Source of the DNA: a virus
IMG/VR virus record: IMGVR_UViG_3300045988_121331
Span: 1 to 42,216 of that record
Strand: one strand, 5' to 3'
Length of the DNA: 42,216 nucleotides
The notes beneath the pieces were generated by a model, which did no database searches, had not been told where the DNA came from, and saw nothing but the letters and a program-made list of their open reading frames with translations. The position numbers were made by a program, and so were the translations under genes. Shown here piece by piece: positions 6,285 through 38,587 of the stretch (position 1 is the first letter of the stretch; each line of letters opens with the position of its first letter).

Positions 6285-6704
6285 TTAATATTCAATGAAC
6301 GCTAACCGCACTTTATCCATAAGCACCTCACCATTGCGAATAAGCAAGGGTGTAAATGTTATGTCGGGCATATAAAACTCCCCTTGCTCATATGTGTGTG
6401 TATCAAAACAATAGTGGATAATTTTCAGCTTTCGTTCCTTTGCGTTTATAATACCACTATTTAAGATATTTTGCAAGGACAATAGCTCTCTTTCAAATAA
6501 GGGCGGTGTATTCCATTCCAGTTTTGACCTTGTGTGGGCTAAAGTGTTGCGGTGCAGTTTGCCTAAATTATCTTGATAACTATCAAGGTCTTGCCGTTGG
6601 TTCGGAGTGGAAACATAGCTTGTTAAAGATATATACTTATTCGGTATAGGTATAGCCGTGTTATCACTCGCCCTTATTACTTTTACAAAATATGTGTCAA
6701 ACAT
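6285..6704 (-). CDS. distal tail protein-like (small Dit)
   Basis: 139 aa immediately downstream of the tape measure, with an AGGAGTGG RBS. The call is based on position only. Confidence 0.45.
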   Translation of the reverse strand: MFDTYFVKVIRASDNTAIPIPNKYISLTSYVSTPNQRQDLDSYQDNLGKLHRNTLAHTRSKLEWNTPPLFERELLSLQNILNSGIINAKERKLKIIHYCFDTHTYEQGEFYMPDITFTPLLIRNGEVLMDKVRLAFIEY

Positions 6705-6721
6705 ATGCTTCCACTCCTAAA

Positions 6722-8686
6722 TTAAAATGCACTTGCGCCAGTACGCCGTTTAAAGTTATTGTTTTGGTTTCTAACAGCCGTGAACACTTCTCTGCCGTCA
6801 ATCTGTACCGTTATAGGTTGACTGCCACCGCTTGTTTTGCCGATGGCGTCCACAACGGCATTATATACACCCAGTGAAACGGCTTGAACAATTTGGTCGT
6901 TATTAGCTACCGCAGTCCTGCCGCCGATAGAACCGACCATTTCAGGCTTTCCGTTTTCCCTTGTCATAAATAACTGTGCCGAATTAACAAAACCGCCGCT
7001 TGCGTAGCCTTTAATTTTGCTTGAATTTTTCTTAACAAAATCATCTTTCAACACATTGCCAGATGTTGAGCCAAAAATTCGTTTTACAGCTCCTGTTATA
7101 ATACCTTGTGCAGCATTATATAATAATTCAACAACCTTTTTAATAGGGAATAAGACATTTACAAGGTTTTTTAAAAAAGTGCCAACGGAATGTGTCTCAA
7201 AATAATTGATGACTGATTTGCCAATGCCTTTTATCAAATCAACGACTGCATTAACAACCGCGCCACCTATTTTTTCCCAACTTTCGGGTTTAATCATAAA
7301 ATCAGCTATTTTATCAAATAAATTTAAACAACTATCTATAGCTTTCTTGCCGACTTTTTCCCAATCTATGCCGTCTATAAAGTCCGCTATTGCATTGAAA
7401 ATTTTCGTGTATGTTTCGGCATTTGTTATCCAATTAACAAATTCATCAGTAAAATCCAAAGCGCCAATCACTAAACCGCTAAATGTTGACCCCAAAGATT
7501 TCCAATCCAAACCTTCAATTAAATCGTTTATGCCGCCAAATAGTGTAGCCCCCAAATTGCCAAAATCAAAGTCATTTACCAATCCGTCAGCAAAGTTAAT
7601 AGCCATATTAAGTTTATCGGCTATAGTTCGCCCCCATTTATTTTGGTCGAGACTGCTAATAACACCATTGATTTTCTGTGCTAACAAAGAGCCGACAGAT
7701 TTCCAATCGCCGTTTTTAATGCTGCGTATAAGAGCGCCAGCAAAACCGCCTTTTACATTCACATCGGCGATTTCAAACATTTTAGAATAATCGTCACCAG
7801 CGGTAGCCGAGCCGCCCATATTGCTTGTAATATTATTGATTTCATCAAAACTCGCCAGCGCATTACGGTTAGCCTTTGCAGTTTCGTTTGCAGCTTCGGC
7901 ATATTCTTTTTGATATTTGATAGCCTTTTTAAAAGTTTTTTGCCCCGTAAGTGCGGCAAATATTTCAGCTAAACGGTTAGCCATATCAGCCAATCTATCA
8001 ACAGCTTGCTCAATGGCTGGTGTAAAGTAATTGATTATCGGCGCTGTTGCCGCTCCTATGGCATTTTTAAGATACAGAAAACTTGTAGATAGCCTATCCA
8101 AACTATTGGCAAATCTGCCGTCAATGGCTTTGCTATACTGATATAAATTAGCCGTTCCCTCTTGTATACTCTTTGTAATGGTTTGGAATACAGATGATAA
8201 CACACGGTATATCAAGAAAAATTGAATACTATCCGAAATTCTCCGCAATAGTTTATGAACGCCTGTAAGGGATTTATGTGCCTTATTGGAACGCTTAGAA
8301 ATATCACTTAATGATTTTTTACCGTTTTTGCCGACTTTATCAAAACTTGCGGAAAGTTTGTTAGTAGACTTTGTAATAGGCTCAATAGCAGTGTTAATTT
8401 CTTTAATTTTTTCAGTGCTTTCCTCGGCAGAAGCAGATATTTTTTTTATACTGTCAGCGGTCTTTCCAAATTTATCTGATACGGTATCTTGCCATTCTAA
8501 TTTTGGCAATTTCATATCAGATATTTTTTCAACCGCTTCTTCCACACTAGAAAAATCCCAGCCTTTTGAAAGTGTCTGCTGCAGTTTTTCAAGCTTTTTA
8601 TCGATTTCATCAATCTTTTCACTTGAATTTTTTGTATCGACTTCTATGTCAATGCCAATTCTATCAACATCATATTCATTTGCCAT
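6722..8686 (-). CDS. tail tape measure protein
   Basis: 654 aa. Long helical N-terminus, Gly-rich hydrophobic middle, and the canonical position after the G/GT chaperones. Confidence 0.85.
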   Translation of the reverse strand: MANEYDVDRIGIDIEVDTKNSSEKIDEIDKKLEKLQQTLSKGWDFSSVEEAVEKISDMKLPKLEWQDTVSDKFGKTADSIKKISASAEESTEKIKEINTAIEPITKSTNKLSASFDKVGKNGKKSLSDISKRSNKAHKSLTGVHKLLRRISDSIQFFLIYRVLSSVFQTITKSIQEGTANLYQYSKAIDGRFANSLDRLSTSFLYLKNAIGAATAPIINYFTPAIEQAVDRLADMANRLAEIFAALTGQKTFKKAIKYQKEYAEAANETAKANRNALASFDEINNITSNMGGSATAGDDYSKMFEIADVNVKGGFAGALIRSIKNGDWKSVGSLLAQKINGVISSLDQNKWGRTIADKLNMAINFADGLVNDFDFGNLGATLFGGINDLIEGLDWKSLGSTFSGLVIGALDFTDEFVNWITNAETYTKIFNAIADFIDGIDWEKVGKKAIDSCLNLFDKIADFMIKPESWEKIGGAVVNAVVDLIKGIGKSVINYFETHSVGTFLKNLVNVLFPIKKVVELLYNAAQGIITGAVKRIFGSTSGNVLKDDFVKKNSSKIKGYASGGFVNSAQLFMTRENGKPEMVGSIGGRTAVANNDQIVQAVSLGVYNAVVDAIGKTSGGSQPITVQIDGREVFTAVRNQNNNFKRRTGASAF

Positions 8687-15144: not shown

Positions 15145-15172
15145 ATTATATGCAACATTGAAAATTTGTCAA
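15145..15172 (-). promoter_or_regulatory. sigma-A-type promoter TTGACA-16-TATAAT just after the terL stop
   Basis: The minus strand reads TTGACAaattttcaatgttgcaTATAAT. Confidence 0.5.
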
Positions 15173-15180
15173 GTGTTTTT

Positions 15181-18100
15181 TTAATTTGCTCGTCTGCGAT
15201 TAAGAATTGTGATAGAATTTTGCCGTTTTTTGAAAGATAAATATTTTTGAGCATACATTGCTATCACATCTATACTATCATCATAGGCATTGTGCGCCGT
15301 ATATGAAAACGAGGTAAGGTATTTCATAAACTTGCCAAATTCTGAACCTTGCGCATACATCCCAAATTCCGGGAATACAATGCACGATTTAATAGTCGCC
15401 TCATTATCATATATTTTATCTTCTTTATGCTTATAGCTATATACTTCTGTAATATTACAATAATCTATACCTCTTTCGTAAAGCATACCACGCAATAGTG
15501 TGGCAAGGCTTGTATCGGTGTTGCGCTCTATATGCAATCGCGTAATGTGGTGCTGCTCTATTTTACGAATTATAGTAGGATATATCTTTTCCATAGGTTT
15601 CATTTCAAATATACAGTCTTTAAGATAATGTTTATCACCTATAGGAAGACAAATAGCCATTGCTATATAGTTTGCACCGGTACGCGCAGGGTCAAGCATA
15701 GCCCAACAACTTTCCTCGTCTTTTTCTTCTTCAATATGTGGTATAGCCTTATATGTTAATAGATTATCATAGCTAAAAGCACAGCCCTCAATAGGCATAG
15801 GCTCTTGCATATCCATAGCCATAAAAGTATTATAGTCGGCAAGTCTGTCAGCCCGAGCTTCCTCTGTGGTGTATTTATGTGGATATGTGCTTTCGTCAGT
15901 GTCCCAATCAAGTTTAGGAACGGATACGAAAACCGCCTTATGCCGAGCATTAAACTTTGTGTATTTATTGATTTTACTCTGTTTAGCCGTATCGCCGCCA
16001 TATTTGCGCTTTATGGTAGACAGAAAGTCATAAATATGGTAGGTAGTGCCACTGAAAACCTCAAAACTGTTATTATCATCATATTTTCGCTTTTTCCACT
16101 GGTCTTGATACCGCTCTATATCTTTTTCGTGCATATTGATATTGCCCTTGTCTTTTGACCGTGTAATATCATCGTAAAAGCGGTATTTATATCGTCCGCC
16201 GTCTACAGGGGTGTCTTTATTTGCTAATAGGAACGATGTGCCTTTAATACTTCCGTGGATAAGCAAGCGCGCCACTTGATTATTGCCGCCCTCACGCCGA
16301 ACATCAAATATTTTGTCCTTATCACCCTCAAATTGAGCATAATAAGGAAATACTTTGGCATAATTAGGCTTGCACATATATTTTACCAATTTTGCGGACA
16401 TATCGGTTATCAATGAGGGGTTTCCAACTATTTTTAATACATCTGCGTTTATATCTATGCCAAATATATAGGATATTAGAACAGTATCGGCATAGCTATT
16501 ATGTGATACTATGCCATTTGCAATAAAATTGTGCGTTTCTTCAACTTCAATATCAACCATATCAGTTAAATCTTCGTCAAATTCTATGCTTTTTATCTTT
16601 TGCCACACAAAGTCATTTGAGACAACATCTTTAAGCAAACCTGTTTTTTCTGAAAATTCGTCAATCCATTGTTTTTTAAAGGATAAAGTTTTCGCCCAAG
16701 ATTTATTTTTTATTTTCTTCAACTCTTTGCAATGGCAAACAACGCTTTTAGGATAGTTTACATTGTTTGAATATGGCGACACACTCTTTGAAAACAACCG
16801 TTCAACTCTGATTTTCAGATTTTCTTGCTTGTAATAACAATAACAGTTTTTGTATAATTTGTTTATGAACTCATCGGGTATTGTAAGATTGTAACAATCA
16901 AATGTTTTGCCATCACACTTGCTTTTTCTATGGCAATAATAAGAGTATATGCCACAAGTGCCTAAAAGTCTTTGTATGTCTTGTATAAGCCCCTCGTTAG
17001 CAAGTGATATTCCACAAGGGCTTTTACCTTTATTTATCCAACCGTCAGTAGCAAACATTATGCCGATAAATTTATATCTTTGTTTTAAACTCATTTCAAA
17101 AAACTGTTTAGGCAGTCTTTTAGTATAAGACAAATGATTTATAACGCCATAACGGATAAGAACATCTGCTACTTTGCCATTTGCACTGTGTATTCTCACT
17201 TCGTACGCTTTTGATGGGTGATAAACACTATATGTTACGCCCCATTTATTAAGCACCGAAATAAATCTATCCAAAATTTCGTTATTTTCTTTGATAAATC
17301 TAAATCTTGCCTGTTTGCAATGCCCATCAAAAATCATACAAGTGACAAAAAACAGTTCGTCTTCGTCAATTTCATAACCATAATTCAATGGCGAGCAGAT
17401 TTCAAGAAGATAATCGCTAACGGTTATATCTTTGCACATTTTATAACCTTTGTCGGTGTACAATCTATGCTCAGGACTGCAAATTATCTCTTTGCCATTA
17501 TTAAGCCTAATTTTGATTTGTTTTTTTTCTGTATTCCATTTATTCGTTATTCGCCTTATTACAGGTTTGTTTTCTTTCATAGAATACACAAAATCGCCAA
17601 TATTAACATTTTTAATAGGTTTATAACCCTGTGTAGTTAAAATAGGCGTATCAGCTTTTAGGCACTTTCCATACCCGACTGGGCATTGTTTTTCAAGGTA
17701 TTTCACAGTGCCGTCAAGCACCATTTTGTCGGCATAATACCAAAATCCCTTAAAACAATTAAGGTTATATTTCCATACCTTATCATTTTCAGGCATACCC
17801 CACTCCATATAAAGCGCAAAGTGTTCTATGTTGCGGAAAGCCGACAAAGCATAAAAATTCTCATACAATTTGCCGTATTCGGTATAATTTTCTTGCAATT
17901 TCAGCAACCGAGCCTTGTTTTCCTCGGTAAATTTCTCTTTTTTGAGTTTATCAGCCAAAACAGCCATTTTTTTCAGTTTATCACGCAATGTAGGCAAAAC
18001 AAATTTGCAGACATACTCAATATGCTTGCGGATTTCATCCTCGCCCTCGTTATCACGCAACTGTGCCAAATAACCGTGTATCTGCGAGTGCATAGTGCGA

Positions 18101-18216
18101 TATAAATTATCGCTGACAGCTAAAACATACTCGTCACTGTCTAAATACTTTGCATTTTTGCGCATTTCGCTAAACGCAACACAGCCTTCACGAACAATCT
18201 CACCGATATTATCCAT
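15181..18216 (-). CDS. terL: terminase large subunit, interrupted in-frame by an intein
   Basis: The exteins carry a split Walker A (CPVGYGK|S), RFYDDI, and nuclease motifs (AMLDPARTGANY, AYDDSIDV). GGAGG RBS. The 1011-aa precursor would give a 622-aa mature protein. Confidence 0.9.
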   Translation of the reverse strand: MDNIGEIVREGCVAFSEMRKNAKYLDSDEYVLAVSDNLYRTMHSQIHGYLAQLRDNEGEDEIRKHIEYVCKFVLPTLRDKLKKMAVLADKLKKEKFTEENKARLLKLQENYTEYGKLYENFYALSAFRNIEHFALYMEWGMPENDKVWKYNLNCFKGFWYYADKMVLDGTVKYLEKQCPVGYGKCLKADTPILTTQGYKPIKNVNIGDFVYSMKENKPVIRRITNKWNTEKKQIKIRLNNGKEIICSPEHRLYTDKGYKMCKDITVSDYLLEICSPLNYGYEIDEDELFFVTCMIFDGHCKQARFRFIKENNEILDRFISVLNKWGVTYSVYHPSKAYEVRIHSANGKVADVLIRYGVINHLSYTKRLPKQFFEMSLKQRYKFIGIMFATDGWINKGKSPCGISLANEGLIQDIQRLLGTCGIYSYYCHRKSKCDGKTFDCYNLTIPDEFINKLYKNCYCYYKQENLKIRVERLFSKSVSPYSNNVNYPKSVVCHCKELKKIKNKSWAKTLSFKKQWIDEFSEKTGLLKDVVSNDFVWQKIKSIEFDEDLTDMVDIEVEETHNFIANGIVSHNSYADTVLISYIFGIDINADVLKIVGNPSLITDMSAKLVKYMCKPNYAKVFPYYAQFEGDKDKIFDVRREGGNNQVARLLIHGSIKGTSFLLANKDTPVDGGRYKYRFYDDITRSKDKGNINMHEKDIERYQDQWKKRKYDDNNSFEVFSGTTYHIYDFLSTIKRKYGGDTAKQSKINKYTKFNARHKAVFVSVPKLDWDTDESTYPHKYTTEEARADRLADYNTFMAMDMQEPMPIEGCAFSYDNLLTYKAIPHIEEEKDEESCWAMLDPARTGANYIAMAICLPIGDKHYLKDCIFEMKPMEKIYPTIIRKIEQHHITRLHIERNTDTSLATLLRGMLYERGIDYCNITEVYSYKHKEDKIYDNEATIKSCIVFPEFGMYAQGSEFGKFMKYLTSFSYTAHNAYDDSIDVIAMYAQKYLSFKKRQNSITILNRRRAN
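16498..17664 (-). mobile_element. intein (389 aa) with LAGLIDADG homing-endonuclease domain, inserted in the terL P-loop
   Basis: It begins at Cys185 (CLKADTPILT) and has block B (SPEH). Two LAGLIDADG-like motifs are present (LFFVTCMIFDG, KFIGIMFATDG). It ends THNFIANGIVSHN followed by Ser (+1). Confidence 0.85.
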
Positions 18217-18478: not shown

Positions 18479-18507
18479 ATTATATCATATCCACTACTCT
18501 TTGTCAA
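18479..18507 (-). promoter_or_regulatory. promoter TTGACA-17-TATAAT (TGa extended -10), distal to the terL leader
   Basis: The minus strand reads TTGACAaagagtagtggatatgaTATAAT. It overlaps the stop of ORF 18494-18781. Confidence 0.6.
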
Positions 18508-18781
18508 GCTCTAATAAAAACGCAACATTGCAAGCAATATGATACAAGTGCGGCAGTCCGCTATCCTCATCAACCCCGTGCGGCTCTTTCAGCCATTTGC
18601 ATATGTGGCGCATTAAAGCCGCCCTATATCGTTTAGGGTCAACATTCTTATAACTGCCCTCGCCATATTTTTCAGCGCCGTGTGTCATAACAATGCCAAC
18701 AGCCTCTATTATCTCAGCAGGCACTAAATCTAACCTCGGCTTGCCTCCGTCGTGCTTTAACCCATCTGTTACAACATCCAT
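18494..18781 (-). CDS. MazG-like all-alpha NTP pyrophosphohydrolase-like protein (resembles the DUF5664 / dATP-dGTP diphosphohydrolase N-terminal family)
   Basis: 95 aa with KHDGGKPRLDLVP, GAEKYGEGSY and DEDSGLPHLYHIACNVAFLLE. The pattern is recalled from memory and not searched. GAGAGGTGGA RBS. Confidence 0.5.
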   Translation of the reverse strand: MDVVTDGLKHDGGKPRLDLVPAEIIEAVGIVMTHGAEKYGEGSYKNVDPKRYRAALMRHICKWLKEPHGVDEDSGLPHLYHIACNVAFLLELDKE

Positions 18782-18825: not shown

Positions 18826-18855
18826 ATTATAGCACCCCGCCCCCGCGCTTGTCAA
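18826..18855 (-). promoter_or_regulatory. promoter TTGACA-18-TATAAT (TGc extended -10)
   Basis: The minus strand reads TTGACAagcgcgggggcggggtgcTATAAT, upstream of ORF 18494-18781. Confidence 0.6.
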
Positions 18856-18936
18856 CCTTTGCATAAATTCTGCATTTTTATTCATTTTCTACGCATAAAC
18901 CAGTAAAAAAACAACTTTGTGAATTTTTAAAATTTT

Positions 18937-19006
18937 GGGGGGTAACCCGACCTCCGGCTGCCCGGTCCGGGATAGGGTTCGGGGTGGGTTTTGCCCCGGG
19001 AACGCC
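18937..19006. other. GC-rich island (about 70 bp) in AT-rich non-coding DNA
   Basis: Sequence is GGGGGGTAACCCGACCTCCGGCTGCCCGGTCCGGGATAGGGTTCGGGGTGGGTTTTGCCCCGGGAACGCC. It contains the palindrome CCCGG-T-CCGGG and no ORF. Confidence 0.6.
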
Positions 19007-19073
19007 TACAAATAAAGCGTTTTCACGTTACAAATACGAACGATTAAGAAACAAAAACATATTTTTAACACGA

Positions 19074-19105
19074 TTTAGCACTTTAGCGCTTTAGCACTTT
19101 AGCAT
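19074..19105. repeat. four tandem 8-bp repeats TTTAGC(A/G)(C/T)
   Basis: Reads tttagcac tttagcgc tttagcac tttagcat head-to-tail, 65 bp from the GC island. Confidence 0.8.
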
Positions 19106-19388
19106 AATGAAGGTGACAGCCTTACTTTTCTATTTAATTATCATTACATTTTAATTATATATATGTATATGCCTATAATATAAGTATGTGCAGTGTATGA
19201 GTATATTATAATATAGTCTTGTGCTTATATGTATAGGCTTATACAGACAATAACGATATAATAACACGGTGCAGGGCTTAAGGCTACTACAGAACACGCA
19301 AGGGCGTATATAATATTGGTGGTATACTCTGCATATTATGAATAAATAGGCATATTAAAATATTTTATTTTAAAATTAAAAATTTTAC

Positions 19389-19417
19389 TTGACAAATATA
19401 TTTATATTTGATATAAT
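19389..19417 (+). promoter_or_regulatory. promoter TTGACA-17-TATAAT (TGa extended -10) for the plus-strand operon
   Basis: Reads TTGACAaatatatttatatttgaTATAAT, preceded by phased A/T tracts. Confidence 0.75.
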
Positions 19418-19449
19418 AAAGACAACGAAAGGAAAGGAGAAAAAACAAG

Positions 19450-19566
19450 ATGAAAACAGAAGATATTAAAAAGCTGCTGCATTTGGTTATTGAACTTTTG
19501 AAACGGTGTAAAACCGTCGACGAAGCTATAAAAGCAATATGCAACGCTTACGACATCCACGAATAA
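19450..19566 (+). CDS. 38-aa leader ORF
   Basis: Encodes MKTEDIKKLLHLVIELLKRCKTVDEAIKAICNAYDIHE, with a GGAAAGGAG RBS. It is followed by two GC-rich hairpins. Confidence 0.35.
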   Translation: MKTEDIKKLLHLVIELLKRCKTVDEAIKAICNAYDIHE

Positions 19567-19640
19567 CAAACGCCGAGCCGGGCGGCATAACCCGGCAGCC
19601 TTCGGGCTTGTTGATAAAATAATTAAAAGAGGCTTTCAAA

Positions 19641-19874
19641 ATGGAAAGATACACACAAAAACAATTAAAAAATCTTGTAAACACTGGCGCGGCTGTTGAT
19701 ATTACCCGCGGAAACAACGAAACCCGCGAACAAATAATTAATGAAGAAGGATATTATACCCAAATAGGATATAGCGCGGGCGTTTATGGTTGTAATGGTA
19801 TGTTGTTAAAAGGTCATAAAACGGGCAAATTATACGCAGTTACAAGCAACACAAGCGCAATATATATATTTTAA
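19641..19874 (+). CDS. hypothetical protein (77 aa)
   Basis: AAGAGG RBS. Conserved-looking C-terminus (GYSAGVYGCNGMLLKGHKTGKLYAVTSNTSAIYIF). No family identified. Confidence 0.55.
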   Translation: MERYTQKQLKNLVNTGAAVDITRGNNETREQIINEEGYYTQIGYSAGVYGCNGMLLKGHKTGKLYAVTSNTSAIYIF

Positions 19875-19976
19875 TTAGCAGAGTGGCGGCGGCTTTGGCT
19901 GCCGTTAATGCGGCAGGGCATACGGTCACAAGCCCCGAAAGCCCGAAAGCATATATTTTATGTTGAGGTGTAAAAA

Positions 19977-20369
19977 ATGAAAACAAACAATAAAAAAGCA
20001 CGCGAGAACATACGCAAATATATTATTGCAAACTTTACCCCGGAGGGCTACACGGACAACCCGCCGCAAGAGTTCCCCAAAATAGCCCGCTTTATTCTTT
20101 CCACTTTCAGAAATGAAAAATACAACACCCCGGAAGACTTCCGCTATTATAGGAATAACGAGCTTGCAGCTTTCGCGGCTTGGTGCGCGGGGCTTTGCGG
20201 TGTTCTTGATACTTGTTATTTTTATAACCGTTCCGCCGTTGATGACCTCGGCACAATTCTTGAAGAAACAGAGGAAGAAAAAACGCGTTATACAGAAGAA
20301 CAAGCCGAAAACACATTAACATTTTTAATTTATCGCGAGTTAATAAAAGGGGCTGCGGATAATGTATAA
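19977..20369 (+). CDS. hypothetical protein (130 aa)
   Basis: GAGGTG RBS. Overlaps the FtsK-like gene by 8 nt, suggesting translational coupling. Confidence 0.6.
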   Translation: MKTNNKKARENIRKYIIANFTPEGYTDNPPQEFPKIARFILSTFRNEKYNTPEDFRYYRNNELAAFAAWCAGLCGVLDTCYFYNRSAVDDLGTILEETEEEKTRYTEEQAENTLTFLIYRELIKGAADNV

Positions 20370-21354
20370 CGGCGAACAATTAGCGCAGGCGCTGACCGTT
20401 TTCGGTCTGCCCTGCGTTTTTAAAGAAACGAAACAAACCCCACGCAACACCATATATTATTTTGATTTTACCGACTGGGGCAAAGTCACAGCGGGCAGGC
20501 GTAAAGCAGCGCTTGACCGCCTTTCACTATATGCCAAACATCAATTTAATTATATTGATAGTAATATATCACATTTCGCAATATATCACGCTGAAAACAA
20601 TTATAATATTGTCCCGCTTTTCGGGCTTGCCTTGCCTGCTGATGATACTTATAAATTCATAGCGGGCATAAACGAGGACGGCGAACAAGTCAACATTTCA
20701 TTAGATGAAATGACACACGCACTTATTGCAGGTACTACCGGCAGCGGTAAAAGCGTATTTTTAAAAAGCCTTTTATATTCTTTATTAACTACCAATAGCC
20801 CGAATAAGATAAAATGTGCTATTATAGATAAAAAGCGCAGTTTAAATTATTGGAGCAGGGCGGCGCACTGTCTCAGAGTGGCAAACGATGATATTTCGGC
20901 AATAGCTTTATTAAATACTTTTCAAAAAGAAATGTATAACCGATATGAAGAATTACAGCGCCGAGGGCTTGAAAAAAATATCGGGCTGTTTCCTAAGTGG
21001 GTATTGATAATTGATGAGCTGGCGGATTTAATGCTAACTGACCGCAAAACAGAAATTGAAAACAAGCTTGTTTCGCTTTGTCAGCTCGGGCGCGCTGCCG
21101 GTATTCATTGTGTGCTGTGCACCCAGTCGCCCCGCGTTGCTGTTGTCAGTGGTTTAATTCAGGCGAACACCCCGACAAAGATTATATTTAAAACAGCGAA
21201 CACGCGGGAAAGTGTATTGTGTTTAGGTCATTCGGGAGCGGAAAAGCTGCTCGGAAATGGTGACTGCCTTATAAAATTGCCCGACAGAGTAAAAGATATT
21301 AGAGTACAAGCGCCGTTTGCAAGTGATGAAGACTTTAGAAACTGTATAGAATAG
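20362..21354 (+). CDS. FtsK/SpoIIIE-family DNA-translocase-like ATPase (alpha+beta domains, no gamma domain)
   Basis: Walker A (GTTGSGKSVFLKSLL), Walker B (WVLIIDELADL) and the arginine-finger region (CTQSPRVAVVSG). No membrane anchor and no C-terminal winged helix. Confidence 0.85.
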   Translation: MYNGEQLAQALTVFGLPCVFKETKQTPRNTIYYFDFTDWGKVTAGRRKAALDRLSLYAKHQFNYIDSNISHFAIYHAENNYNIVPLFGLALPADDTYKFIAGINEDGEQVNISLDEMTHALIAGTTGSGKSVFLKSLLYSLLTTNSPNKIKCAIIDKKRSLNYWSRAAHCLRVANDDISAIALLNTFQKEMYNRYEELQRRGLEKNIGLFPKWVLIIDELADLMLTDRKTEIENKLVSLCQLGRAAGIHCVLCTQSPRVAVVSGLIQANTPTKIIFKTANTRESVLCLGHSGAEKLLGNGDCLIKLPDRVKDIRVQAPFASDEDFRNCIE

Positions 21355-21365
21355 AGGTATAAAAA

Positions 21366-21482
21366 ATGATTTTTAGTGTTTTAGCTTATATTTTAATAGT
21401 CGGTATTGGCTGTATATTCTTTGAGTGTACGAAAACAGGGCAGAAAATAGCCGATAAAATCTATAAGAAAATAATAAAATAA
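21366..21482 (+). CDS. 38-aa single-TM peptide
   Basis: Encodes MIFSVLAYILIVGIGCIFFE..., with an AGAGGT RBS 7 nt upstream. It is the last ORF before the terminator. Confidence 0.35.
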   Translation: MIFSVLAYILIVGIGCIFFECTKTGQKIADKIYKKIIK

Positions 21483-21490
21483 TGCTTTTG

Positions 21491-21520
21491 ACCGTCCGCA
21501 GCTTGTGGGCGGTTCTTTTT
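21491..21520 (+). terminator. intrinsic terminator of the plus-strand operon
   Basis: Stem accgtcc/gggcggt (7 bp including one G:U) followed by TCTTTTT. Confidence 0.55.
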
Positions 21521-21644
21521 ATGCCTGTTTAAAACTATGCTCTAAAATGCCCTGTATTGCGTTTTAATGTTTACTTTAGTATTTATATTCCGAAATAATA
21601 AAAAAGCTGTACAGCCCCAAAAGAAACGATATTTTTAATATTCT

Positions 21645-21694: not shown

Positions 21695-22165
21695 TTATTG
21701 TTCCGATGTGGCTTGTAGTTCGGCTTGCAACCGCTCAAATACTGCTTGCCGGCTGATATGGTGTCTTCTTGCTATTTCCGATATATCGCCCCATATCGCT
21801 TTACCCTCTCTACGCATAAGAGCGGCTTTCTTTATTTCCTCGCATAGTTCCGCTTTCGGCGGTCGTGTTTTAATATTACAATAGGCATTTAAAGTATATC
21901 TCACATTATATCGGGATATATTTAATTTATGGGCTATCATATCCACATTATGCAGTCCACTTTCCCACAAGGCTTTTATTTGCTCCTTGTTGGCTGTGCC
22001 GTCATCGCTTACCGCTCTGCCTCGCCTTATTGTTCCGCCGTTTGCCTTTATTGTATTGACAACATAATATCGTGATAGCCCTACAATATCGGCGGTTCTT
22101 GCCACTGTATAGCCCTTATAATGGCATATCATAATATCGTCTATTTGGCTTTGCTTTAATTTCAT
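21695..22165 (-). CDS. DNA-binding protein with three tandem HTH units
   Basis: Three repeats of the pattern xIxxxxxxGxxxxxIAxxLxISRxxV (resolvase / sigma region-4-like). ATGA overlap with the upstream gene. Confidence 0.6.
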   Translation of the reverse strand: MKLKQSQIDDIMICHYKGYTVARTADIVGLSRYYVVNTIKANGGTIRRGRAVSDDGTANKEQIKALWESGLHNVDMIAHKLNISRYNVRYTLNAYCNIKTRPPKAELCEEIKKAALMRREGKAIWGDISEIARRHHISRQAVFERLQAELQATSEQ

Positions 22166-22418: not shown

Positions 22419-23114
22419 TTATAAAATTTTTAATTGTTGCATTTGATTTTGAAGCCTATCATTAGCTAATTTATAATAATGCTTGCTTAATTCAAAACCA
22501 ACAAATTCAAAGCCTTCGTCATAACACGCTACAAGGCTTGAAGCGCTCCCGGCGTGTGTATCTAAAATCTTATCGCCTTGTTGAGCATATTTACCTAACA
22601 ACCACTTATAAAGCGCCACTGGCTTTTGTGTGGGGTGTATGCGTATTTCTTTATTTCTCATATCTTCTTGTAACATACCGTTCCATTTAAACCTAAAAAT
22701 TCTTACTGCAGTTTTGAAAGAAGTCCATGCAAGTTCACAGTCAGCAAAATCAGTATCGCCATTGCGTTTATCCCACACTATCCAGCAATGGCTATCAATG
22801 GGGATACGACTAATAAAATGATTAGCCCCCCATATAATTTGATTTTTAGAAACTCTCATAAGTTCGTCAAAATATTCTTTTTCGGGGGGGTTAATATCAT
22901 CACCGGCAAAACTTTCATAACTTTTAGCATAACATTTGGCGTTGCTTTTACTTTGCAAAAATCCTATCCTTTTTCCTCGAGATTTCGCTTTGTCCCCATT
23001 TTCACCTATGCCATACGGCGGGTCAACAATAGCTAAATCAAAATATTTATCGGGGAATTGTTTCATTCCGTCCATACAATCCATATTGTAGAGTTTGTTA
23101 AGCTCTAACATCAT
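22419..23114 (-). CDS. DNA methyltransferase, N6-adenine/N4-cytosine beta class (DPPY)
   Basis: Motif IV (IVDPPYGIG) lies N-terminal to motif I (ILDTHAGSASSLVAC). ATGA overlap with the recombinase stop. Confidence 0.85.
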   Translation of the reverse strand: MMLELNKLYNMDCMDGMKQFPDKYFDLAIVDPPYGIGENGDKAKSRGKRIGFLQSKSNAKCYAKSYESFAGDDINPPEKEYFDELMRVSKNQIIWGANHFISRIPIDSHCWIVWDKRNGDTDFADCELAWTSFKTAVRIFRFKWNGMLQEDMRNKEIRIHPTQKPVALYKWLLGKYAQQGDKILDTHAGSASSLVACYDEGFEFVGFELSKHYYKLANDRLQNQMQQLKIL

Positions 23115-23710
23115 TCTACCCCCTTTAATATTCTGCTTACCGTAGCTATGCTTATATTTAATATATCGGCTATGTCTCTATAACTCTTATGCTCGGATTT
23201 TAAGTCAAACACTTGTTGCCGAATTTCGTCTGATATTGTTTTCGGTCTGCCGAGTGTAACACCCTGCTGTTTTTTTCTTTGCAACGCGTTGGATGTATTA
23301 TAACCTATTTGTCTTTTCAAAAATTCGTCTTGTATAAAGAATTGAGATATAGTCATCCAAGTATACGGGTTCATTTTTTCCCCGCCCTCTAATGTTATAC
23401 CATTGCTCAAAAACTTTACGGTGGCTTTTTTCTGTTGCGTTATTAAATCAAGCATTTCAAAGCAATCGATATAATTTCTGCCAAAGCGTGATGTTTCAGT
23501 AAGGCAAACAATGTCTGTTGGTTCGAGACATTCAAGCATTTTGTTAAACTGTTCACGCTGATTACCTTTAACGCCACCGCTGATATGTTCCTCAAAAATC
23601 ATATCAAACTCATATCCGCTATTTTCAAGCAAATACATCTGTCGCTCATAATCTTGTTTCGCTGATTTTTCGGTTGTAGATACTCTACAATAAGCTATTA
23701 CTTTGCACAT
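23111..23710 (-). CDS. small serine recombinase (resolvase/invertase type)
   Basis: 199 aa with the N-terminal catalytic motif (AYCRVSTTEKS), SRFGRN, and a C-terminal HTH (SYRDIADILNISIATVSRIL). Confidence 0.9.
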   Translation of the reverse strand: MCKVIAYCRVSTTEKSAKQDYERQMYLLENSGYEFDMIFEEHISGGVKGNQREQFNKMLECLEPTDIVCLTETSRFGRNYIDCFEMLDLITQQKKATVKFLSNGITLEGGEKMNPYTWMTISQFFIQDEFLKRQIGYNTSNALQRKKQQGVTLGRPKTISDEIRQQVFDLKSEHKSYRDIADILNISIATVSRILKGVE

Positions 23711-23776: not shown

Positions 23777-23805
23777 ATTATAAGCCTTTATGTAACATTT
23801 GTCAA
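23777..23805 (-). promoter_or_regulatory. promoter TTGACA-17-TATAAT for the recombinase operon
   Basis: The minus strand reads TTGACAaatgttacataaaggctTATAAT. Confidence 0.7.
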
Positions 23806-28507: not shown

Positions 28508-29212
28508 TTAATATTTTATATTGTTACAATACTCGTCAATTCGCTCATTCGCCAAGTCACAATATTGTTTAGATAATTCGTATCCGATAAAATTCCTTTT
28601 GTGATTAATAGCCGCTATTGCAGTTGTGCCAGACCCTGCACAAGGGTCTAATACCGTATCTCCTTCATTTGTGTTGTCAAGCAACAATTCCTCAAACAAC
28701 TTTAAATTTTTTTGTGTCGGATGTATTTTTCGGCTACCGTTCGGATATTTAAAAACAGTATTTTTACAATGGGCATTAAATACTTTCGCTCCTGCCTTTT
28801 TAAACCATACTGCAAATTCAACGCCTGACAAATATATGTATTGTCCATTCATAGGACTAGGATTAGTCTTTTCCCATACGATTGGGCGAACAGTTCCCTT
28901 TTTATTTGCAAAGAATTTATAAATATCACTAAACTGCTCTCGCCCACAAAAAATACAGATAGAATTTTTCGTAACCCTATAAACCTCACATAAAAAATCT
29001 TTAATATTAAATGTTTCTGTATCTGCATCTTCTTTGTTTAAATTTCGTAATCCATTGCTTTTTCGATTTACTTCCCCGAACGGAATGTCCGTTAATGTCA
29101 TATCTATGCTATTATCGGCGAGCGACTTCATTCCTTCAAAACAATCAACATTATAAATCTTATTTTGCTCTATTAAACAACTCTCTTTTTCATACCCTTT
29201 AACTCTTTTCAT
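28508..29212 (-). CDS. DNA methyltransferase, N6/N4 beta class with variant motif IV (DIPF)
   Basis: Motif IV (LTDIPFGE) lies N-terminal to motif I (VLDPCAGSGTTAIAA). It is the first gene after promoter 29339-29367. Confidence 0.8.
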   Translation of the reverse strand: MKRVKGYEKESCLIEQNKIYNVDCFEGMKSLADNSIDMTLTDIPFGEVNRKSNGLRNLNKEDADTETFNIKDFLCEVYRVTKNSICIFCGREQFSDIYKFFANKKGTVRPIVWEKTNPSPMNGQYIYLSGVEFAVWFKKAGAKVFNAHCKNTVFKYPNGSRKIHPTQKNLKLFEELLLDNTNEGDTVLDPCAGSGTTAIAAINHKRNFIGYELSKQYCDLANERIDEYCNNIKY

Positions 29213-29392: not shown

Positions 29393-30623
29393 TTATAACA
29401 TTTCTCCAAATATTGCTTCTAATACAGCCACTACGATTGAATTGCCTGCTTGCTTATATAACTGGCTGTTTAAATTTACTTGCGCGGCTTTTTCAAAATC
29501 TTCATCGTCAAAGTCCATAAGCCTAAAGCACTCTTTTGGTGTTAGCTTGCGTATTCTAACCTGTTCCTTAACTTTCACTTCTTGATTACCCCCCCCCGCA
29601 AGTGGTAAGTGTCGGTGACAATCCGTCAGTGCTATATACTCTGCGTGATTTTTCCTGCGTTTTATCCCACTTCCCACCTTGCATTGTGCCGTATAATTTA
29701 CAATTTATCGTTTCCATTCTAACACCCCGTTTGTAGTCTGATTTCCAAATCCCTTATAATCTCTTGACATAAGTGTGTTTGCAACATCAACTGAATTTTC
29801 AATTTGTTTGCCTTGCTTCGACAATAATATCCCAACTGTGCCTATCTGTGCTTGCCCGTCCGCCTGCGCGAATTGTGTGGCTAATCTCTCTCTCTACATT
29901 AACAGATTTTAAACATTTTTCAACGTTGTTTTCAGATATATAATATTTTTCCTCAACATTGCTATCCAATAAATCTTTTAGCCGAGTTTTTAAAGGCTTT
30001 GGCTGTGGAAATTCGTAGTAATAATCTCCGAGTAAGCTCACGCAAAATGTACGGTTACGGTTTTGTGGTACGCCAAAATCTTTAGCGTTTAAATCTTTAT
30101 ACCAACTCTTGTAACCCAAACTTTCAAGCTTTTGCAGCCAACTGTTAAAGTCCGCAATGTTTTTTTCTGCGTGTACTTGCGACACATTTTCCATAAGTAA
30201 TACTTGTGGTAGTTCGTTACATTCGTCTAATAATCTTTCAACTTCCCACAATAGCCCTGACCGTGTACTGCTGTTCTTCGACATTCCCCGTTGTTTCCCG
30301 GCAATACTCAAATCGGTGCAAGGAAATGAATAAGTTAATATATAGCAATACTTATCCGTATCCGTTATACCCAAATCATCGGCAGTAATTTTCGTTACAT
30401 CACTTGTTTCAAAATTCGTGCCGTGAATTGCGTTATAGCTCTTAATTGCGTATTTATCAAACTCGCATACTCTGTAATGCTCAAACGGTACGCCGAGCCG
30501 CTCCAAAGCCTTTGCTTGCGCTCCTATTCCGGCAAACAGCTCAATCAAACGAATAGGCTTATCAATCTTAAACTTTTTAGTGCCGTCAAACATTCCTATT
30601 TGTGAACCGAACCAATCGCTCAT
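29393..30623 (-). pseudogene. DNA (cytosine-5) methyltransferase, disrupted by at least three frame changes
   Basis: Motifs I (FAGIGAQ), IV (FPCTDLS), VI (ENV) and VIII (QNRNR) lie in frame 1, which stops at 29799. TRD-like pieces alternate between two frames. Motifs IX and X (RKLTPKECFRLMDF, QAGNSI) are in ORF 29393-29677. Confidence 0.7.
29589..29597 (-). repeat. G9 homopolymer at the last frame junction of the C5-MTase
   Basis: The minus strand reads ACT TGC GGGGGGGGG TAA. A G8 tract would join TLTTCGGG to NQEVKV...RKLTPKE in frame. Confidence 0.8.
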
Positions 30624-38558: not shown

Positions 38559-38587
38559 ATTATATCACACTAAAAATAGTTTGTCAA
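38559..38587 (-). promoter_or_regulatory. early promoter TTGACA-17-TATAAT (TGa extended -10)
   Basis: The minus strand reads TTGACAaactatttttagtgtgaTATAAT. Three 10-bp-phased AATATTTT tracts lie upstream (38588-38620). Confidence 0.75.

Follow-up and report, generated by a model that had tools for sequence, protein, structure and literature searches.

The locus described here raises the question why a phage genome that is otherwise read from one strand carries, on the opposite strand, a compact operon ending with the gene for an FtsK/SpoIIIE-type DNA pump, and whether the small proteins encoded along with this pump are its partners. The operon (Table 1) is located in the IMG/VR virus record IMGVR_UViG_3300045988_121331, which was considered over its entire length of 42,216 nucleotides (nt; hereafter 'the window'), and comprises five open reading frames (ORFs) of 38, 77, 130, 330 and 38 amino acids (aa), all on the + strand. 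A first interpretation based on the letters of the DNA (hereafter 'sequence-only reading') had listed a promoter, these five ORFs, a translational coupling and a terminator, all of which we recovered, and had considered the 77-aa and 130-aa products as partners of the 330-aa ATPase in a compact unit of possible function in defence, DNA partition or transfer, or interference with sporulation. Our comparison with related loci (designated by L numbers) leads us to suggest a different view, to which we would give an even chance: the unit may represent the accessory-gene array which this phage carries between the genes for the small (terS) and the large terminase (terL), and not a dedicated multi-protein machine.

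Small Proteins Encoded with the ATPase

The notion of a dedicated five-protein machine, in which the 38-, 77-, 130- and 38-aa products are obligate subunits or adaptors of the ATPase, draws on (i) the tight spacing of the genes, (ii) the translational coupling of the 130-aa gene, the stop codon of which overlaps the start of the 330-aa gene as ATGTATAA, (iii) the constancy of the first 38-aa protein and of the transmembrane peptide in the closest clade, and (iv) the presence of the 130-aa gene upstream of a short FtsK gene in 5 non-redundant loci. Relatives with a 94-97% identical ATPase differ, however, in what lies upstream of it. L007, L009 and L010 match the window; in L006 a different 145-aa gene is followed by a twister ribozyme and the ATPase gene, and both the 130-aa and the 77-aa gene are missing; and in L008 the 130-aa gene leads directly to the ATPase gene, with neither the 77-aa gene nor a ribozyme. 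Hence, one or both of the presumed partners can be lost or swapped next to a nearly unchanged motor. Likewise, the 246 co-directional ORFs found upstream of the ATPase gene in 44 non-redundant short-FtsK loci belong to 205 families, the commonest being the 130-aa family itself with 5 of the 44 loci, and no upstream family is conserved.

The two proteins represent sizeable, well-conserved families (742 homologs of the 130-aa and 278 of the 77-aa protein), the members of which are mostly encountered in the absence of FtsK. Among 50 viral loci that encode a 130-aa homolog, 10 have an FtsK-like ORF within 5 kb and 40 have none; for the 77-aa homologs the respective numbers are 5 and 75 of 80 loci. 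One 77-aa homolog stands alone, flanked by two HTH_26 genes. Within the 46 loci that were mapped, the 130-aa gene is in most cases located between TerS and TerL, often followed by a 72-78-aa relative of the 77-aa protein, in a gene group which is usually co-directional with the terminase genes and devoid of FtsK. Given these comparative data, the five-protein machine is largely refuted as far as can be judged from sequence, and we regard it as highly improbable.

No Pfam domain is recognized in either of these two proteins of 77 and 130 aa, in agreement with the sequence-only reading, which had recommended structure prediction as a check. The AlphaFold2 models represent an alpha/beta fold for the former (pLDDT 92.6) and an all-helical fold for the latter (pLDDT 87.9; family phrog_11100); fold searches with both models yielded no match in the PDB, and the only fold matches of the 130-aa protein, obtained in BFVD, are uncharacterised phage proteins (template-modelling scores of 0.6-0.8). 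Among cultured phages, there was no DNA match to the window and no 130-aa homolog, and a single, unannotated match to the 77-aa protein. We thus suggest that the 77-aa and 130-aa genes are probably independent, horizontally mobile cargo rather than genes for ATPase subunits, a proposition that is part of the accessory-array interpretation as a whole and shares its even standing. For annotation this would mean that small ORFs beside such an ATPase should not be taken as its subunits.

The two 38-aa products are constant over a somewhat different range. The first one, previously called a leader ORF, is rather a conserved small protein, since the pattern LHLxIxLxK..DEAIKxIC..DIxE is kept in L005 despite strong divergence of the DNA; it has no transmembrane segment and no family match. 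The last one consists of an N-terminal transmembrane helix and a basic tail, and its size and architecture are kept in L001 and L005-L010 and not in relatives at <=40% identity.

Ribozymes at the Gene Junctions

Between the 77-aa and the 130-aa gene, the operon contains a Twister-P5 ribozyme (Rfam RF02684) that is absent from the earlier account of the unit. The match scores 51.8 bits (gathering score 37.6; E 4.5e-9) and spans the full model (positions 1-58 of 58), so that the element is a standard member of RF02684; it is placed 2 nt after the stop codon of the 77-aa gene and 38 nt before the start of the 130-aa gene. In four independent twisters (window, L017, L023 and L213) the core GCAGAGUG...UAAUGC...GGUCACAA is kept, and the P1 stems are different yet complementary, the compensatory changes having been assessed by eye and not by formal covariation statistics. 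A home-made twister covariance model was dropped because MAFFT misaligned the core; the regular-expression descriptor used in its place detected nothing further in the loci collected for comparison, which total 3.5 Mb and of which 1.1 Mb surrounds cellular ftsK genes. When the window is compared with L006, the twister is identical in both, the linker carrying the ribosome-binding site (RBS) differs at three positions up to the next ATG, and this ATG opens the 130-aa gene in the window and the FtsK gene in L006.

Rfam scans covering ~40 related loci revealed eleven ribozymes on the array strand, that is, seven in other lineages (twister, hammerhead II and pistol) along with the copies present in close relatives, the only other Rfam match in these loci being a tRNA. 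L017 and L023 carry twisters ahead of FtsK, in L029 a hammerhead is found 15 nt before the FtsK start, and further hammerheads are present in L032 (two) and L038. In L212 (5370-5436) a pistol begins at the very base after the stop codon of the 130-aa homolog, and in L213 (4313-5188) a hammerhead and a twister bracket a 130-aa/77-aa-like gene pair; hence, three ribozyme classes occupy equivalent positions beside one gene family. Seven of the eleven ribozymes start <=2 nt from the stop codon of the upstream ORF.

In bacteria and phages, ribozymes of unrelated classes have been reported to occur in the same gene neighbourhoods, an observation left unexplained (PMC6765202), and in prophage transcripts single genes, ardA among them, are known to be flanked by ribozymes (PMC3088659). 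The arrays resemble such ribozyme-punctuated prophage operons and ribozyme-associated genes (Perreault 2011; Roth 2014; Weinberg 2015) in that unrelated ribozyme classes stand at equivalent places beside the same genes, whereas the location between terS and terL, the abutment to stop codons, the ribozyme-plus-RBS junction and the link to FtsK are features seen here. The literature that was searched, which does not cover the gene lists of Roth 2014 and Weinberg 2015, contains (i) no FtsK unit with a twister ribozyme, (ii) no bare alpha+beta motor ending a reversed, hypervariable, ribozyme-punctuated array between terS and terL, and (iii) no ribozyme-plus-RBS swap junctions. The sequence-only reading had not recognised the architecture as a described system, which agrees with this body of literature.

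A second RNA-like element, the GC-rich hairpin just after the first 38-aa ORF, is better conserved than the flanking coding DNA and exhibits one compensatory change (G-C to A-T) in L005, its pattern occurring in only five viral contigs, all of this phage lineage. The idea that it is an RNA of a known or widespread type was discarded, given that Rfam yielded no match at E up to 5 and that the folding z-score of -0.6 is not significant.

Location between the Terminase Genes

Of the 39 non-redundant short-FtsK loci with enough downstream sequence, 31 have a convergent TerS-like gene that follows the short FtsK gene at a distance of up to 3 kb, usually of no more than 500 nt. Four of these downstream genes matched the Pfam family GP3_package (PF16677) directly and the others were assigned to those by BLAST; three loci carry, in the TerS position, a multi-helix-turn-helix (HTH) gene like that of the window. 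A TerL gene on the - strand is found upstream, within the stored flank, in 16 loci, and both TerS and TerL are present in 13. The array thus occupies, in reversed orientation, the interval from the small-terminase position to terL, and FtsK is the gene at its end. Reversed arrays without FtsK likewise exist (L186, L197, L213-L215). In the window, the TerS position is occupied by the convergent 156-aa HTH protein, which is similar neither to the GP3_package TerS that distant relatives carry there nor to any solved structure. It is thus not homologous to those TerS proteins, and its identity as TerS is only positional.

The regular neighbourhood suggests the main alternative, in which the motor is a packaging helper, working with the adjacent small terminase to clear or feed concatemeric DNA when packaging is initiated, and in which TerS or the neighbouring HTH protein provides the DNA recognition that the gamma domain would otherwise convey. 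The convergent TerS-like gene in 31 of the 39 loci is encountered across differing TerS and TerL types, and the converse arrangement is known: in the Bacillus phages Sam46 and Sam112 an FtsK module is physically linked to the small terminase, the gamma domain being fused to TerS (PMC8190038), whereas the window has the alpha+beta motor as a separate, convergent gene. However, the ATPase gene is located on the opposite strand, under its own promoter and among hypervariable cargo, and the phage has a canonical TerL. Moreover, since reversed arrays without FtsK exist and most phages with the 130-aa gene lack FtsK, the latter is not a core packaging function, and the adjacency to TerS may merely follow from FtsK being the end of an array that was inserted downstream of terS. 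We therefore consider a packaging helper unlikely, albeit worth keeping in mind. The protein does not qualify as an FtsK/HerA-type viral packaging ATPase, that is, a motor in place of the terminase, since the canonical TerL is present together with an SPP1-type portal.

The FtsK-type ATPase

The 330-aa protein matches the Pfam family FtsK_SpoIIIE (PF01580; E 1.1e-29) and the phage family phrog_1358, annotated 'FtsK/SpoIIIE-like' (E 1.8e-56), the latter only with the motor part (profile positions 579-823 of 1382). When its family profile is compared with FtsK from P. aeruginosa (PDB 2IUU; E 5e-82), the alignment runs from the alpha domain through the end of beta (from profile position 50 and chain residue 141 to chain residue 461), and the protein starts ~10 residues before the alpha-like block. 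The sequence-only reading had raised the possibility that the ATPase motifs might prove degenerate. They do not: Walker A (G124..G127-S-G-K130), Walker B (D218-E219), GRAAGIH and TQ motifs do not vary among 17 aligned homologs extending down to 37% identity, and an N-terminal block is conserved in them as well. The maximum 19-residue hydropathy is 1.36, which leaves no transmembrane anchor, and no FtsK gamma family is among the Pfam matches at E up to 0.1, the protein ending with beta. The span of the profile alignment together with the lack of a hydrophobic segment and of gamma shows that the previous description as an 'alpha+beta only' ATPase without gamma domain and anchor, and with intact Walker motifs, is correct. 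The protein thus shares with cellular FtsK/SpoIIIE the alpha and the RecA-like beta domain along with all catalytic motifs and the arginine-finger region, whereas it is phage-encoded and devoid of the N-terminal membrane domain, the linker and the gamma winged-helix. Without the latter, there can be neither reading of FtsK-orienting polar sequences (KOPS) or SpoIIIE recognition sequences (SRS) nor activation of XerD. The protein would function as an autonomous translocase on double-stranded DNA, presumably as a cytoplasmic homohexamer.

In the data gathered, the short form is viral: 44 non-redundant proteins of 250-430 aa are found in viral contigs, and all 75 cellular matches have lengths of 514-1153 aa. 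FtsK-like genes were matched in 369 phage records, and an exact-sequence look-up of the window ATPase returned no record. Proteins annotated as 'FtsK/SpoIIIE-like' are known from phages (PHROG 1358 and 3551; Bacillus phage Silence; cluster J mycobacteriophages), and the window ATPase matches phrog_1358; in comparison with these long profiles, however, its family represents the bare alpha+beta motor, encoded by the last gene of a reversed array beside terS. The arrays also define a minimal FtsK motor that is phage-specific and widespread.

Conjugative pumps and coupling proteins (Streptomyces TraB, type IV coupling proteins) belong to the same ATPase superfamily, and PDB 6O1W, a 'DNA translocase coupling protein', is matched with E 1.6e-32; the matches to TraB and TraD are weak. 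In contrast to conjugative modules, relaxase, type IV secretion system and replication genes are not found nearby, there is no transmembrane segment, and the ATPase is far closer to true FtsK. Its neighbours are terminase, HTH and methylase genes, and plasmids yielded only long FtsK proteins of the cellular type (806 and 1181 aa). Hence, the ATPase is not part of a conjugative or replication module; it is membership of such a module that the sequence-only reading had named as a refutation of its proposal.

The ATPase exhibits 36-41% identity to the motor domains of cellular FtsK, relatives occur in metagenome-assembled genomes (MAGs) of Clostridia, and phage genome notes have raised the parallel to SpoIIIE, assigning no function (PMC4599081). 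One might thus envisage that the protein mimics or interferes with the FtsK/SpoIIIE of the host, poisoning chromosome segregation or sporulation, or helping phage DNA into the forespore. Yet it cannot pump across a septum on its own since it has no transmembrane anchor, there are no sporulation genes nearby, and mixed hexamers appear doubtful at 40% identity, which makes this a very improbable explanation.

Two observations on relatives may be added. In a Clostridia MAG (L310, 9042-11005) a 68%-identical short FtsK gene follows a 302-aa RES-domain gene, and this pair marks the edge of an integrated element, being located at the border of phage-like genes and bacterial core genes (corrinoid methyltransferases, SecA). 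In L002, L003 and L004, which encode a relative at 40% identity, 1.6 kb without called genes (~6350-8000) directly precede FtsK, and this ORF-poor gap in L002 has no Rfam match at E up to 1.

Proposed Function of the Array

Based on the evidence collected so far, the operon would be transcribed from its single sigma-70 promoter, against the reading direction of the remaining genome, as a polycistronic RNA that stops at the intrinsic terminator. This RNA is predicted to be cut by the twister ribozyme between U19906 and A19907, a position that we take to be the cleavage site from the twister consensus. The upstream piece, comprising the 38-aa and 77-aa genes, would then terminate with an 8-bp GC hairpin that bears a 2',3'-cyclic phosphate, and the downstream piece, with the 130-aa gene, the ATPase gene and the transmembrane peptide, would begin with a 5'-OH, so that the two halves may well differ in stability and yield. 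RNase J1 is the enzyme that degrades the 5'-OH product of the glmS ribozyme. Degradation of this product by cellular RNases of Firmicutes has been reviewed, and cleavage may thus lower the yield of the ATPase relative to that of the upstream genes. The small ORFs would be interchangeable, with ribozyme and RBS linker constituting the junction at which cargo is exchanged, and the ATPase would be the recurrent 3' gene of such arrays, acting alone. Lacking gamma, it would have no sequence guidance of its own, and would move along DNA or clear proteins from it. The array as a whole may serve establishment or counter-defence during infection.

The latter suggestion comes from the arrays of other phages. 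Of their 146 ORFs ~8% have a Pfam match, and these matches include LPD29, Amidoligase_2, DUF4942, a SAM-lyase-family domain, GP88 and a MazF-like toxin; PHROG adds methyltransferases and a family annotated 'released from the phage upon host infection', and PADLOC detects only methyltransferase and mad2 matches. Solo LPD domains have been proposed to facilitate early invasion (PMC5512222). The sister arrays thus share LPD29, SAM-lyase-family, Amidoligase_2, DUF4942 and methyltransferase components with the polyvalent-protein sets that phages and plasmids have for early invasion and counter-defence (Iyer et al. 2017), whereas none of the cargo domains of the sister arrays is present in the window's own array, which consists of separate small ORFs and not of one polyvalent protein. 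Taken together, the sister cargo would point to establishment or counter-defence rather than to defence. Further neighbours in related loci are an Mrr-like nuclease, Bro-N and serine recombinases.

This bears directly on the earlier suggestion of a defence or superinfection-exclusion cassette, in which a prophage would use the motor, perhaps tethered by the 38-aa membrane peptide, to block or expel foreign DNA. The reverse orientation, the consensus promoter and terminator of its own, the retention of the transmembrane peptide in the closer clade, and the 68% homolog that adjoins a RES-domain gene where an integrated element ends would all be in line with such a cassette, as would the resemblance of the ATPase domain to the SspH, mad8 and HerA models. 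These PADLOC matches (in the case of SspH to the C-terminus) cover only the ATPase domain, however; the other components of the Ssp, MADS and HerA-type systems are not encountered in the operon, the other four ORFs having no PADLOC match. In addition to the scarcity of defence genes among the 146 sister-array ORFs, (i) neither an integrase-sized recombinase nor a repressor is found among the window ORFs examined (part of the ORFs was scanned), the only recombinase being a 199-aa serine recombinase, (ii) the - strand units share the same promoter type, and (iii) FtsK-like genes are present in 369 phage records, among them those of many Bacillus, Listeria and Staphylococcus phages which we take to be strictly lytic. 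A defence cassette appears quite improbable to us.

Several points weigh against the interpretation as an accessory array with a role in establishment or counter-defence. The adjacency of FtsK and TerS is very regular (79% of the loci) and could reflect a functional tie to packaging. The assignment to counter-defence relies on the cargo of other phages, of which ~92% has no Pfam match. The ORFs of the comparison loci are crude calls made as longest ORFs by greedy selection. Finally, given that the 130-aa gene is coupled to the ATPase gene and recurs ahead of short FtsK in 5 non-redundant loci, a facultative interaction of the two proteins is conceivable. If the role of the ATPase is considered by itself, establishment or counter-defence is a tentative assignment that falls short of an even chance; some function other than those discussed is possible but less probable, a link to packaging via TerS is still more doubtful, and defence or exclusion on the one hand and interference with host FtsK/SpoIIIE on the other are equally improbable.

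It is tempting to speculate further that ribozymes and RBS linkers are the standard junctions of a gene-cassette system in phages of gut Clostridia, through which unrelated phage backbones would trade ORFs that end exactly at the ribozyme. The RNA pieces thus produced, bearing 5'-OH and 2',3'-cyclic-phosphate ends, would differ in their stabilisation or even undergo ligation or circularisation, and the bare motor, brought to phage DNA by the small terminase encoded next to it, would serve in counter-defence or in clearing the DNA. That all of this applies jointly is rather unlikely, and if true it would give a concrete biological role to the bacterial twister, hammerhead and pistol ribozymes. 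The clustering of these ribozymes near the same genes has lacked an explanation since 2014 (PMC6765202), and the arrays, being reversed, hypervariable and located between packaging genes of uncultured gut phages, offer a concrete and testable setting in which the ribozymes abut stop codons and mark the points of gene swapping. Whichever role the motor has, be it in counter-defence, packaging or host manipulation, a well-studied type of DNA pump would thereby acquire a further task.

Operon Anatomy and Genome Setting

The features of the operon and of the two genes that delimit it are summarized in Table 1.

Table 1. Coordinates of the array and its flanking genes in the window.
Feature	Position	Strand	Basis
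Sigma-70-type promoter TTGACA-17-TGATATAAT	19389-19417	+	12/12 matches to the consensus, with TG extension
38-aa small soluble protein	19450-19566	+	ORF with RBS; pattern kept in L005
GC-rich hairpin element	19572-19600	+	Conservation in the lineage; compensatory change
77-aa alpha/beta protein, putative cargo	19641-19874	+	AlphaFold2 model; homolog loci
Twister-P5 ribozyme	19877-19938	+	Rfam RF02684
Linker with RBS, travelling with the ribozyme	19939-19976	+	Comparison of window and L006
130-aa all-helical protein, putative cargo	19977-20369	+	AlphaFold2 model; phrog_11100
330-aa soluble FtsK alpha+beta ATPase	20362-21354	+	PF01580; phrog_1358; PDB 2IUU
38-aa transmembrane peptide	21366-21482	+	Maximum 19-residue (Kyte-Doolittle) hydropathy 2.64
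Intrinsic terminator	21490-21524 (hairpin 21490-21514, then T-run)	+	11-bp stem, 6 GC pairs
156-aa multi-HTH protein, convergent	21695-22165	-	HTH_7 and HTH_23 matches
Large terminase with intein, divergent from the operon	15181-18216	-	Terminase RNaseH-like, Intein_splicing and LAGLIDADG_3 matches

The rest of the window represents a ~42-kb siphovirus-like genome that is read from the - strand and encodes functions for replication and recombination (DnaB, a DnaD/O-like initiator, SSB, RecT and an exonuclease) and, for packaging, structure and lysis, an intein-bearing TerL, an SPP1-type portal and an endolysin. The description as the only opposite-strand operon holds because no + strand ORF outside it has family support. 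The operon terminator faces a - strand terminator at 21691-21656.

The promoter (TTGACA-17-TATAAT) is indeed perfect, and it is kept in L005-L009. It is not special to the operon, however, being one of six perfect TTGACA-N16-18-TATAAT sites in the window (0.04 expected), of which five are on the - strand (15145-15172, 18479-18507, 18826-18855, 23777-23805 and 38559-38587). Since the same promoter type drives five - strand units, an expression independent of the phage programme, as previously assumed, cannot be inferred. Two of the six perfect promoters are stacked with two 11/12 sites (18410 and 18271) upstream of terL, which is unusual for late genes.

The divergent promoters enclose a non-coding gap of 600 bp. 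The 8-mer repeats mentioned by the sequence-only reading are confirmed there as tandem CTTTAGCR 8-mers at 19071-19102. They are absent or altered in the 94-97% relatives, with varying copy number and sequence, and were rejected as a conserved binding array; the idea of a partition or transfer device acting on them is thus not supported, real as the repeats are. The gap also harbours AT-rich direct and inverted repeats (19160-19245) and a G-rich element (18935-19010), which is partly conserved in L006, L008 and L009, folds no better than shuffled sequences and has no Rfam match; it may represent a site on the DNA, for instance pac, cos or ori. An invertible segment was likewise considered, an invertase-like serine recombinase of 199 aa being encoded 1.6 kb away, and was dismissed for want of convincing flanking inverted repeats.

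Between the array and terL, a 95-aa ORF (18494-18781, - strand) represents only the N-terminal domain of a dATP/dGTP diphosphohydrolase (PF18909; 4.5e-26), of which L171 has a 167-aa version. The window also encodes three DNA methyltransferases (22419-23710, 28508-29212 and 29799-30623, - strand) along with the 199-aa serine recombinase, which is of the resolvase/invertase type. Finally, terL occurs as a 1011-aa form with a LAGLIDADG domain in the window, as a 776-aa mini-intein form in L006 and L009, and in intein-free form (618-627 aa) in L005 and L002, which indicates that the intein is polymorphic in this phage group.

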